Origin: Candidatus Heimdallarchaeota archaeon
GTDB taxonomy: Archaea > Asgardarchaeota > Heimdallarchaeia > JABLTI01
Reading direction: 5' to 3'
Assembly (NCBI GenBank): GCA_030614005.1
Contig: JAUWKS010000010.1
Coordinates: 36,350 to 68,349, forward strand
Length of the DNA: 32,000 bases
Below are positions 18,240-23,022 of this stretch, in pieces; within the stretch, counting starts at the first letter, position 1; the number at the start of each line of letters is the position of its first letter. The position numbers were made by a program, and so were the translations under genes. The notes beneath the pieces were generated by a model, which worked only from the letters and a program-made list of their open reading frames with translations, searched no databases and had not been told where the DNA came from.

Positions 18240-20285
18240 TTACTTTTTCCTCTTTTTACGCATTAGTAGACCGATTACTGAAAACAGCACAAAACCGCCT
18301 ACAAATGAGATTAGACCAAAAGGTGTATCTTCAACTGAATATAGAAGTGGATTAGAAACTAAAATTCTTGTTCCATCTGCACCTTCAGCAAGGAAGATGT
18401 ATCCATTTCTAATTGCTAAAGATTTATGTGTTGCTAGGTCATCATATTGTCCTATTAACCGAGGATGAACAATGTTTTCAGTATCACAAACCATTAAACC
18501 TAAATTGCCGTCTATTAAATAGACGTATTGTCCATCTACTTTCAGAGTGTGTGGGTCTTCATAAGTAAAGAATTGTCCTACTTTTACTGGTTCAAGTAAA
18601 TCGGTAAGATCAATAATGTCAAAGCCTTCATCACATATGAAAAAGCCATGGTTATTTTGTATTTCTACACCCCAATAGTTTGCATTTGGACGTGTAAAAT
18701 TACCAATTTGTTCAGGATTATATGGATTTGTTACATCAACAACATGCATGTAATCTTCTGCTGCTAAGATAAGGTTGTCTCCAAACTTTTTAACTCCCCA
18801 TATCCACCCAAGTTCATCATATTGTAGTGATTTCATTGGATAATCTGGATAGTAGATATCGATAATTGCTAAACCATTCCATGCTTGAGCAACGTATGCA
18901 AACTCATCATCAACATAGATGTCCATAGACTGCCCTGTGAAAGAGATGTTCCCCTGATATACAGGATTGGCTGGATCAGTAATGCTTAAAATTACCATTA
19001 TTGAATCACCATGGTCTTCTTCTAGAAGGTAAATGTAACCATTTCTTACAAATAAATCAACAATTGGTCCACCAATTGAATAATCATGATAAGAACTTAC
19101 TTTGGTAACATTAGCAAGATTAGTAATATCCAATATTTCTAATGAGAAATGATCAGCAACAAAAGCATAATCTCCATCTAAGAATATCTTTTTAGTAATA
19201 CCATCAAATACTTCAAAGTAAGCAGATGTGATATTTACTGGATTAGAGATATCCAAAATCTCTACTGCATAAGTGCTATAAGCGAAAGCGTAATTTCCGT
19301 AGATATAAAAATCAAATATATCAATTTCAGCATCTGTGTATTCATAAGTGTATACTGGGTTCGTTTTATTTGTCCAATCAAAGATTTCTAATTTATCGCC
19401 TTCATTCACAAACAAGTGATTATTTCTTACTTCTATACCATAACTAGTGTCATTAAATAAAAATTCACTTAGATATATTAGGTTATCTTTTTCCGTTGCG
19501 TTTACTACACTAGCTCTAAACGGAGTAGCGTAATAAATGAAATTCTCAGAATAATAAACATACTTTGCTCCACCAGAACCTATAGTATCTTCACGAATCA
19601 TAGAAAATGGATCAGTCACATTATAGCAGCCTATAAATCCTAAAATATCAGCAGTATAGACATAACCATTAACATAATGCATTTCATCGATAAAAGCCAT
19701 AGTAGTCCAGATATCAACAGGATTATTTCTATCTGTAATGTTTACAACTATGAAATCATCGCTACTTGCCAAATAAACATAATTTCCATGAGCAGCGAGA
19801 GCAAATACACCATCAGGACTGAACCAATTACAAACCCATTCTGGATTAGCGGTATCGCTTATATCTACAACATTAAATCCTGTATCATTTGAAACAAAAA
19901 CGAGATCATCTTCGACGTAAATATTATTACAACTATAAAGATCCCATGATGTTACTAATTGGAGGTCTAAATCAGTAATGTCATAGACTCTAAATCCTTC
20001 TGTACCTAGTGCCAAATACATTCTATTCTCGATAACAAATAGATCTTTGATAGTACCATAATTGTCATCCCAAAAAGATAACTCTGTGATATTATTATCA
20101 GCAGAAGCAGCAGTCAGATCTTCACCGGGTGAAGGACCAACACTCTTAATTTCTATACTTTCCACAGCTTGTTCTTGACCAACAACCATTTTGGTACCAC
20201 CAAAAACAGTCATTGTAAAGAATAATGAAAAAATAACTAAGAAATTAAATAGTTTTCGACTTCGTAATAGATTTCTTACATTCAT
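18240..20285 (-). CDS. LVIVD-repeat (beta-propeller) surface protein with C-terminal TM+basic tail
   Basis: Repeated G..YAYVA...L.I.DI..P..P units; signal peptide from Met17 of the track ORF (ATG 20285, AAGGT SD); tail TPFG+TM+RKKRKK. Confidence 0.9.
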   Translation of the reverse strand: MNVRNLLRSRKLFNFLVIFSLFFTMTVFGGTKMVVGQEQAVESIEIKSVGPSPGEDLTAASADNNITELSFWDDNYGTIKDLFVIENRMYLALGTEGFRVYDITDLDLQLVTSWDLYSCNNIYVEDDLVFVSNDTGFNVVDISDTANPEWVCNWFSPDGVFALAAHGNYVYLASSDDFIVVNITDRNNPVDIWTTMAFIDEMHYVNGYVYTADILGFIGCYNVTDPFSMIREDTIGSGGAKYVYYSENFIYYATPFRASVVNATEKDNLIYLSEFLFNDTSYGIEVRNNHLFVNEGDKLEIFDWTNKTNPVYTYEYTDAEIDIFDFYIYGNYAFAYSTYAVEILDISNPVNITSAYFEVFDGITKKIFLDGDYAFVADHFSLEILDITNLANVTKVSSYHDYSIGGPIVDLFVRNGYIYLLEEDHGDSIMVILSITDPANPVYQGNISFTGQSMDIYVDDEFAYVAQAWNGLAIIDIYYPDYPMKSLQYDELGWIWGVKKFGDNLILAAEDYMHVVDVTNPYNPEQIGNFTRPNANYWGVEIQNNHGFFICDEGFDIIDLTDLLEPVKVGQFFTYEDPHTLKVDGQYVYLIDGNLGLMVCDTENIVHPRLIGQYDDLATHKSLAIRNGYIFLAEGADGTRILVSNPLLYSVEDTPFGLISFVGGFVLFSVIGLLMRKKRKK

Positions 20286-20493
20286 AATTAGTCTACCTTT
20301 CCAAAGAGTACGAATTTTACTATTCATACACAATCAATTCTTAAACCTACATTGTAGTAAAAAGTGTTTGCTTCGTAGCAATTCATAAAGTCGAGGGTCA
20401 TAATTGGTCATAACCAACATTTTTTGTGTATTTAAGACACATTAAGTGACCTCTTCTTGAGTCTTATTTTTGAGACTCTAAAAAGTGAATCCG

Positions 20494-20503
20494 CTTTATA
20501 TAT
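20494..20503. promoter_or_regulatory. TATA element readable in both directions between the LVIVD gene and the small-peptide pair
   Basis: CTTTATATAT: TTTATATA on plus (about 50 bp before ATG 20552), TATATAAAG on minus. Confidence 0.5.
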
Positions 20504-20551
20504 CAAACTGGTTGTATGTTAATTACGAATAAAACTCGGAGAACGAAAAAA

Positions 20552-20641
20552 ATGAACTTCAAAAAACAAAAAATCCAAAAACAAATCAAAAAGGACATTG
20601 AACAAATCAGAATACGAGTGAGCCTCTTATCTGGTTGCTAA
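20552..20641 (+). CDS. Small basic peptide 1 (29 aa) MNFKKQKIQKQIKKDIEQIRIRVSLLSGC
   Basis: ATG with GGAGA SD at 20538-20542, TAA stop; similar to the adjacent peptide 2. Confidence 0.7.
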   Translation: MNFKKQKIQKQIKKDIEQIRIRVSLLSGC

Positions 20642-20673
20642 AAAAACTGATAATAAAATAAAGGTGAAAAAAA

Positions 20674-20760
20674 ATGAACAAAAAATACAACCTAAAAAAG
20701 AAGATTATGCAGGATAAAGCAAAGGCAAGATTGAATTTCGCACTCATTAATGGTGTGTAG
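20674..20760 (+). CDS. Small basic peptide 2 (28 aa) MNKKYNLKKKIMQDKAKARLNFALINGV
   Basis: ATG with AGGTGA SD at 20662-20667, TAG stop; 10 identities with peptide 1 using one gap. Confidence 0.75.
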   Translation: MNKKYNLKKKIMQDKAKARLNFALINGV

Positions 20761-20821
20761 ATTTCAATCATCTTATCTTTATTCAGGAAGAATTTATTTT
20801 AAAAAAAGAGATTTAGAAACA

Positions 20822-20869: not shown

Positions 20870-21310
20870 TTAATGGTTAACCATAAAAGTATGGGTTAAG
20901 ACTTTACCATTATTATATTCGATTCTTATTTGTAGCATTTGTCCTTGTTCAAGTCCTTCTACATGATATTGGTAGGAGTAGTTCTGACCGTTTTGTATTC
21001 TGTGTCTGTATTGCCATTGATATTGTTCTTGGTAAAGTGTTACTTCAGTTGTACCATTTTTAATTTGGATCTGGTTCATGTATGCGTAATTGTGTTGGTG
21101 TTGATATTGATTACCTGCTGGTGTACCTGATTCTTCTTCACATGATAATACTATACTTACGGTATCGGTATCTGAATCAGCTGTTGCACTAACAACGGAT
21201 AATTCGCTGGCATCTGTTGGTGTTACAGCAAAATACACTCCAACTGAGGCTCCAGCTAAAACGACTACGATGCTTGTAACTAATATTGTAATGAGTACGG
21301 ATTTCTTCAT
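20870..21310 (-). CDS. Membrane-anchored hypothetical protein with Gln/Tyr/His-rich segments
   Basis: N-terminal TM; NQYQHQHNY, YQEQYQWQYRHRIQ, NYSYQYH. Confidence 0.8.
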   Translation of the reverse strand: MKKSVLITILVTSIVVVLAGASVGVYFAVTPTDASELSVVSATADSDTDTVSIVLSCEEESGTPAGNQYQHQHNYAYMNQIQIKNGTTEVTLYQEQYQWQYRHRIQNGQNYSYQYHVEGLEQGQMLQIRIEYNNGKVLTHTFMVNH

Positions 21311-22350: not shown

Positions 22351-23022
22351 TCATTCAATTTTCCGAAATACTAAACAATAACTGTGGTCATATCCATACC
22401 CGTAGGATCCGTTTGTTTTTTCTTCTTCCGGTGTTTCCCAATTGATTATTATCTCTCCTTGAAATGCTAATATTTCAGCTATTTTTTTACCTATATCCCA
22501 AGCTAGGGTTGTTAGTTTATCATCATTTTTTAGATTGGACACTTCAATTATTATATACGACCCTTTCCTCATAATTGATTTCAATTTAGTATAGATTGCT
22601 TGTATGAAATTTAAATAATCATGGTAGGTCCCTTTTTCAGTAAAACCAGTTAAAGGATTCTCTTGTTCAAATTCAGTCATATATGTGGGTGAAGAAAAGG
22701 CAAAATCCATCATTGGAAGGTTTAGTTTGTCTAAGTTTATTGAATTGTTATTATACAAAATTGCCTTGTTTGTAAGTTGATTCTTAACATATTCAAATCG
22801 ATCCTTTTCTAATTCAATGCCAAAAGGCACTCTACTCATTTCTTCTGCTACGAAAAGAGTAGTTCCAAATCCTGCGAAAATATCTATTATCCTATCACCC
22901 TGTTTCGTATATTCCTTAAGAAAGAGTTCAACTAGATTTTCAGGAAAACGATTATCATCGTGTAGGAACTTTACTGGTAATGAACGATTTTTCTTCATCT
23001 TTAAAGTAATCACTGTTCTCAT
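22351..23022 (-). CDS. Orphan amino-methyltransferase (DNA N4/N6 methylase or Trm11-like)
   Basis: IIDIFAGFGTT (motif I), GIELE, DFAFSSPTY (SPPY variant, motif IV); no nuclease adjacent. Confidence 0.8.
   Translation of the reverse strand: MRTVITLKMKKNRSLPVKFLHDDNRFPENLVELFLKEYTKQGDRIIDIFAGFGTTLFVAEEMSRVPFGIELEKDRFEYVKNQLTNKAILYNNNSINLDKLNLPMMDFAFSSPTYMTEFEQENPLTGFTEKGTYHDYLNFIQAIYTKLKSIMRKGSYIIIEVSNLKNDDKLTTLAWDIGKKIAEILAFQGEIIINWETPEEEKTNGSYGYGYDHSYCLVFRKIE

Follow-up and report, generated by a model that had tools for sequence, protein, structure and literature searches.

Two adjacent reading frames of 29 and 28 codons in a Heimdall-group Asgard archaeon, pepA and pepB, are, as judged from their conservation, real protein genes that gene finders have overlooked, and they belong to a multi-copy family of micro-proteins; their promoter carries a conserved palindromic site that also occurs ahead of bactofilin-like genes. 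The best explanation of this family, to which we assign a probability of roughly 0.6, is that its members are trans-acting micro-proteins that bind one shared partner and are expressed on command of a factor recognizing the palindrome. Eukaryotes have no closer known relatives than the Asgard archaea, yet gene finders applied to genomes of this group skip proteins under ~30 residues; to our knowledge, almost no transcription-factor sites are known experimentally from the group. The family adds ~10 unannotated genes to each genome, along with at least 62 unnamed clusters of public proteins, with clear signs of protein-level selection, as well as a defined cis-regulatory site and a recurrent association with genes for bactofilin-like (polymer-forming) proteins and exporters. 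It thereby offers a concrete candidate regulon to test and a candidate small-protein layer on an archaeal cytoskeletal system, and, even if the function is mundane, it corrects the annotation of every genome in the lineage.

The window, meaning the whole stretch of 32,000 nucleotides that was analyzed (contig C40:36350-68349), comes from a 3.6-Mb genome with 33.5% G+C; positions without a contig or locus name refer to the window, and the pair and its control elements lie on the plus strand. The A-type gene pepA (20552-20641; ATG at 20552, stop codon at 20639-20641) encodes a micro-protein of 29 aa with a net charge of +6, and the B-type gene pepB (20674-20760; ATG at 20674, stop codon at 20758-20760) encodes one of 28 aa with a net charge of +7. 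Both follow SD-like sites, GGAGA at 20538-20542, 9 nt before the pepA ATG, and GGTGA at 20663-20667, 6 nt before that of pepB, each leading into an A-run and ATGAAC. An initial annotation had reported two tandem small ORFs with such sites and 10 identities between their products, and both points hold, the alignment of the translations giving exactly 10 identities and one gap. Its scope was a single copy; the paralogous pair stands, but it is in fact one copy of a multi-copy family within a conserved regulon. No T-run occurs between the genes, and a T-tract beyond pepB (TTTATTTT, 20793-20800), read from the sequence as a putative transcript end, likely closes a bicistronic pepA-pepB transcript of ~280 nt. 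The pair is flanked by a gene with LVIVD repeats that is divergent from it (18240-20333, minus strand) and by a convergent gene for a 146-aa membrane protein (20870-21310, minus strand), and no regulator gene adjoins it. A tRNA scan and an Rfam search of the window gave no match, and a scan for bacterial-type promoters and terminators, not applicable here, returned nothing. Genes for N6/N4 DNA methylases lie near the window pair (22351-23022, minus strand) and near a bactofilin-linked cassette (L004:627-1418), maybe by coincidence.

A profile of the family recovered 10 ORFs from the same genome at E < 1e-3 and none from a reversed six-frame control, and the DNA of the pair region recurs there three further times, on contigs C121, C7, and C71. 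All 10 other genomes of the genus carry the family, with 2–15 matches each; the resulting catalog holds 83 members of 27–34 aa, mostly 29 or 28, and, because the genomes come from one genus, all counts across the 11 genomes are based on non-independent samples. An internal stop codon occurs in one of the 83 matches. Among 29 phylogenetically independent pairs, pN/pS was 0.32 in frame vs. 0.81 and 0.97 when the frame was shifted, and the differences at codon positions 1, 2, and 3 numbered 65, 50, and 110, respectively. The sense frame is open in all 78 distinct copies, whereas any antisense frame is open in at most 37 of the 78; an antisense ORF of 54 aa (20607-20771) was accordingly rejected as a gene. 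An SD-like site precedes 69 of 80 members, compared with 10% of random background ATGs, and the stop codon lies exactly one residue past a near-invariant Gly in 64 of 80. Arg20 and Gly28 are >90% conserved among 70 distinct sequences, with the near-invariant Arg ~9 residues and the Gly one residue before the C-terminal residue, and conservation of amino acids persists to 25–30% identity while the DNA has diverged. The purifying selection suspected from the two window peptides is thus evident as frame-specific constraint, and homologous loci retain codon-level conservation with next to no broken frames.

The peptides themselves are strongly basic (net charge +4 to +10) and very hydrophilic (mean Eisenberg hydrophobicity −0.38), and AlphaFold2, run with the family alignment, predicted one continuous helix spanning residues 3–32 (pLDDT 87.7). 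Their hydrophobic residues are gathered in the last ~8 positions ([FM]-A-L-x-x-G-x), within a conserved tail of the form R-x-x-[FM]-A-L-x-x-G-x-stop, and this C-terminal part is the most conserved in all paralogs. The basic helical N-terminal part and hydrophobic C-terminal end proposed initially agree with the predicted helix and the tail, but the membrane-binding or toxin-like role proposed with them does not: the helical hydrophobic moment averaged 0.17, with a mean z of −0.33 against shuffled sequences and significance in none of 76 members, so that an amphipathic membrane helix was rejected, and the peptides contain no transmembrane stretch or signal sequence. The same test of hydrophobicity and moment set cecropin, magainin, PSM-alpha3, SpoVM, and TisB apart from the family peptides, with values for cecropin, magainin, PSM, and SpoVM far above theirs. 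Modified-peptide precursors, another early suggestion, are likewise disfavored, as no modifying enzyme, protease, or exporter recurs beside family genes in ~15 different contexts; small regulatory or nucleic-acid-binding peptides, also suggested, would still be the best class. Many A-type peptides have C-x-x-x-G-C or S-x-x-x-G-C as their last residues (…CLLTGC; e.g., L011:1501-1587), giving some A-type members a C-terminal Cys pair, the first position of which is Ser in window pepA.

Two types of member are distinguished, A-type peptides of 29 aa with KK[DE]xEQxR and more basic B-type peptides of 28 aa with DKxxAR, and the A-type gene comes first and the B-type gene second in all 17 tandem pairs. 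Every one of the 17, like the window pair, stands alone and is followed by a convergent gene, with no co-directional gene downstream, and the peptides would therefore be the only products of the pair transcripts. Pairs occur, for example, between genes for a Ras-like GTPase and adenosine kinase or between SRP19-Gar1 and NAD kinase; the window pair occupies a third context, unseen in the 10 congeners and apparently species-specific. Its cassette (20436-20760) is a mosaic, in which the promoter and pepA are nearest to the SRP19-linked cassette (C121:9117-9443) and pepB is nearest to the GTPase-linked one (C7:7358-7671): window pepA shares 88.9% DNA identity with pepA of C121 and 62% with that of C7, and window pepB shares 79.3% with pepB of C7 and 58.6% with that of C121, which points to recombination or gene conversion between paralogous cassettes. 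Single members are found 6–36 nt upstream of genes for bactofilin-domain, coiled-coil/ArsR-HTH, GNAT, and TPR-aspartyl-protease proteins, such positions ahead of unrelated larger genes accounting for about half of the family, and the genes downstream of single members are preceded by SD sites of their own, spaced as in ordinary operons. Other single members are divergent from genes for ArsR-type winged-helix regulators.

The initial annotation had also given the pair its own promoter, and this was recovered as an archaeal TATA promoter module in which the operator, GAGTCT box, GTGAAT, and TATA are ≥90% conserved over the 17 tandem loci. In the window, the module begins with the operator-like palindrome GACAC-N5-GTGAC followed by CTC (20436-20453), which departs by one change in its left half-site (GACAC) from the consensus (A)GTCAC-N5-GTGACCTC. 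Next come conserved columns with an inverted repeat (20459-20478), consisting of the GAGTCT box (20459-20464) and a second, inverted-looking copy, GAGACTC (20472-20478), where short-form promoters have a single box only, and then a nearly invariant block at 20485-20503 comprising GTGAATCCGC and the TATA box TTTATATAT, which together make up the core archaeal promoter. The TATA box occupies 20495-20503, 49–57 nt before the pepA ATG, so the earlier placement of a box 50 bp upstream was about right. The same core block also precedes non-peptide genes that carry the operator, and other peptide subfamilies have different palindromes around their TATA boxes. Among three cassettes of the window genome, the coding part is less conserved than the promoter and 5′ UTR. 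For the exact palindrome GTCAC-N5-GTGACCTC, the 11 genomes of the genus yielded 49 sites vs. none for a reversed control; nine operator sites were counted in the window genome. Conservation among the paralogous loci begins only at the palindrome (20436), 20368-20435 not being common to them.

A site of similar build is known from the Thermococcales glycolytic motif, TATCAC-N5-GTGATA, which is bound by TrmBL1 and activates transcription when situated upstream of BRE/TATA (PMC4706686). The family palindrome resembles it in its TCAC/GTGA cores, its 5-nt spacer, and its position upstream of BRE/TATA, a resemblance only, and differs from it in the flanking bases and in the extra CTC…GAGTCT…GTGAAT module; the window genome has 11 TrmB-domain matches, none of them linked to the palindrome.

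As defined by the shared motif only, the palindrome-headed genes form one candidate regulon. Besides the micro-protein genes, three bactofilin-domain paralogs of ~390 aa are headed by the palindrome, as are genes for an exporter of the ABC-2 type and an MFS transporter, an esterase gene together with a beta-lactamase-family gene, deoxyhypusine synthase, and other micro-ORFs. The window genome encodes bactofilin-domain proteins at C71:140781-141923, C68:48870-50012, and C68:50187-51338. One peptide subfamily lies 6–36 nt upstream of a bactofilin-domain gene; within a second taxonomic family, f2, the palindrome stands ahead of a bactofilin-like gene in at least one genome, and bactofilin-like genes are widespread in the class (48 of 60 genomes). 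An unexpected member is found at C4:62540-63871 (L078), where the operator and TATA module are followed by a GTG-started micro-ORF of 28 codons and then by deoxyhypusine synthase (Pfam DS, E 2.6e-85). In L138 (C114:31990-32097, on the minus strand), a 35-aa micro-ORF (MSYNKK…AIGYI) follows the operator, and the esterase and the 602-aa beta-lactamase-family gene come next; an orthologous locus in another genome (L100 in G001) has the same micro-ORF, which may be a divergent member of the family.

The homologs found in the window genome and its congeners extend into public databases, where the profile, run against 1.84 billion representative proteins, retrieved 62 clusters, those looked up being unnamed or “hypothetical.” All were 27–58 aa long save two longer hits, apparently spurious or over-extended, and no credible fusion of the family to a larger protein was seen among the 62. 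The family had not been recognized when first described, and it has no match in Pfam (noise only, E ≥ 0.085), NCBIfam (0 hits), or the PDB, in which a profile search reached a best E of 3.5 and found no solved structure. A 41-aa extended ORF used as query returned no word-sharing protein, and a 31-aa member was found letter for letter in a protein atlas, without a usable neighbor. Across ~290 other Asgard genomes, the genus profile detected nothing beyond one contig in G206; this hit copies one subtype of the genus, on a contig of 4.9 kb from a bin with 5% contamination, is probably mis-binned, and was discarded. Following the operator reached further. In the sister genus, the same promoter module precedes a 32-aa ORF ending in …MALITGH, and in f2 (genus g7) 12 of 24 genomes have this palindrome ahead of ORFs of 32–34 aa, of which two types, ending in …ILLKGSL or …YYRGNL, stand behind the same promoter. 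The g7 ORFs each have T-rich sequence after them and are read as monocistronic; they are alignable with the genus family, a likeness by alignment alone, without statistical support for homology.

On the reading that we favor, one short transcript from the archaeal TATA promoter would yield both paralogous micro-proteins, and a transcription factor would probably control this promoter by binding the upstream palindrome. Each product would be a single hydrophilic, strongly basic alpha-helix with a conserved hydrophobic tail, the tail docking on a shared cellular partner and the helix contacting nucleic acid or an acidic protein surface. Action in trans on one shared partner is suggested because the pair transcripts would encode nothing else, the distant relatives look like independent genes, the two types are kept together, and the C-terminal tail is the part most conserved. 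That they probably work as an A/B pair we infer from the fixed A-then-B order in 17 of 17 cases and from the g7 genomes with two alignable types behind the same promoter; a complex prediction for pepA with pepB (alignments A4 and A5) scored 0.03, which weighs neither way.

The composition of the regulon, with its bactofilin-like proteins and exporters, leads to the most specific guess, that the peptides modulate a bactofilin-like system, and shared regulation and the one operon fusion make bactofilin-like proteins a tentative candidate for the partner. In its full form, which we likewise regard as doubtful, this guess would make the A/B micro-proteins partners dedicated to a bactofilin-like cytoskeleton in Heimdall-group Asgard archaea (as its tethers, caps, or regulators of assembly), held in one palindromic operator regulon that is kept in at least two taxonomic families, with a micro-protein gene as the first cistron of a bactofilin-like operon in one lineage. 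The basic helix would suit a nucleic-acid target equally, and the mixed content of the regulon (deoxyhypusine synthase, esterase, beta-lactamase-family protein) means that the bactofilin link is possibly incidental.

Trans-acting small proteins known from bacteria include SpoVM, MciZ, and Sda. AzuC of E. coli, of 28 aa, is a further example (PMC8915982). The family peptides share with these four a length of <50 aa, a history of being overlooked in annotation, and a single helix, and the four are under tight control and work through binding to a larger partner; the family peptides have no sequence relation to them, and, unlike AzuC and SpoVM, which are amphipathic membrane binders, they are hydrophilic, non-amphipathic, multi-copy, paired, and archaeal.

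Because about half of the members sit directly ahead of unrelated larger genes, a role as cis-acting leader peptides would fit too: the nascent chain, by its fixed length and its 10 conserved residues at the C-terminus, would stall the ribosome on or close to the stop codon and so set translation or transcription termination downstream. TnaC, SpeFL, and SecM are ribosome-arrest leader peptides, and the pattern of TnaC and SpeFL resembles that seen here, in which length is fixed (27–34 aa) and Arg and Gly lie at set distances from the C-terminus, with many single members 6–36 nt ahead of genes. We nonetheless hold such a role to be unlikely, since the window pair and all tandem pairs have no same-strand gene downstream to control (about half of the other members have one), the relatives in f2 look stand-alone, with T-rich sequence after each, and the downstream genes have SD sites of their own at ordinary operon spacing; two conserved paralogous types in a fixed order would also be unexpected of leaders. 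Most improbable of all the explanations considered is that the loci are a repeated promoter or RNA element in which the ORFs are incidental. The conservation of promoter and 5′ UTR beyond the coding part among the three cassettes of the window genome could be taken in this sense, as could the fold of the whole transcript (z −2.3 vs. shuffled versions), but the latter was set aside because the codon-level signal accounts for the conservation, and the frame-specific excess of synonymous change, the conserved positions of start, SD, and stop, the amino-acid conservation across divergent DNA, and the absence of an Rfam match all argue for proteins.

The tandem, paralogous, cationic, and leaderless character of the pair also recalls exported peptides, either a two-peptide antimicrobial resembling leaderless bacteriocins or a signaling pro-peptide with a conserved, active C-terminal octapeptide. 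Aureocin A70 and enterocin L50 are encoded by multi-peptide leaderless bacteriocin operons with tandem paralogous genes for cationic peptides of ~30–45 aa, a description that the pair fits (+6, +7), but these bacteriocins are hydrophobic or amphipathic and have dedicated exporter and immunity genes, and neither feature was found in the family, whose neighbors encode the LVIVD protein and the 146-aa membrane protein in the window and a GTPase, SRP19, NAD kinase, and others elsewhere. An ABC-2 exporter and an MFS transporter do carry the same operator, but the ABC-2 system shares it at another locus only, and no exporter or immunity gene recurs beside family genes. Half of the family loci adjoin ArsR-type regulators, as in regulator-peptide cassettes, in which small genes likewise neighbor those of DNA-binding regulators and a palindromic operator stands ahead of the peptide gene; in RRNPP systems (Rgg/SHP, etc.), however, the receptors are TPR proteins and the peptides leave the cell, whereas the regulators here are of the ArsR winged-helix type and the peptides lack both an export signal and a hydrophobic core. 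Low hydrophobicity, a moment no higher than that of shuffled sequences, and a C-terminal part that is most conserved across 10 paralogs per genome, the opposite of what a specific signal needs, further make export quite improbable. Small growth-arresting toxins or stress effectors under tight repression, in the manner of type I toxins, could be multi-copy, fast-diverging, confined to few related genera, and driven by strongly operator-controlled promoters, as the family is, and TisB and DinQ are type I toxins of similar size. Such toxins form a hydrophobic transmembrane helix, however, which is absent here, and there is no conserved antisense ORF and no evident antitoxin partner, and several members open ordinary operons as the first gene; we consider this role very improbable.

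The ArsR-type regulators adjoin family peptides as 19 copies in the congeners. In their alignment (A6), Pfam HTH_5 is matched by 19 of 19 members, and the alignment resembles PDB 1ULY (PH1932) over nearly its full length. A micro-ORF of 22–24 aa (e.g., MKETRKMKKEIKKELTPIMGKKKY) lies just upstream of eight regulator-linked members in congeners (L052, L053, L062, L048, L056, L054, L055, and L058), with the N-terminal K-x-QIKKE pattern of the family and without the hydrophobic tail. The window genome has copies of the same regulator family on contig C40 (C40:19858-20553 and C40:21269-21931) and also on C103 and C57, and the two C40 copies flank an operon of three micropeptides 15 kb upstream. These three micropeptides were rejected as family members, being undetected by the profile and having a loose N-terminal K-rich pattern only, and the regulators that flank them belong to the same ArsR-type family as those beside many members in the congeners.
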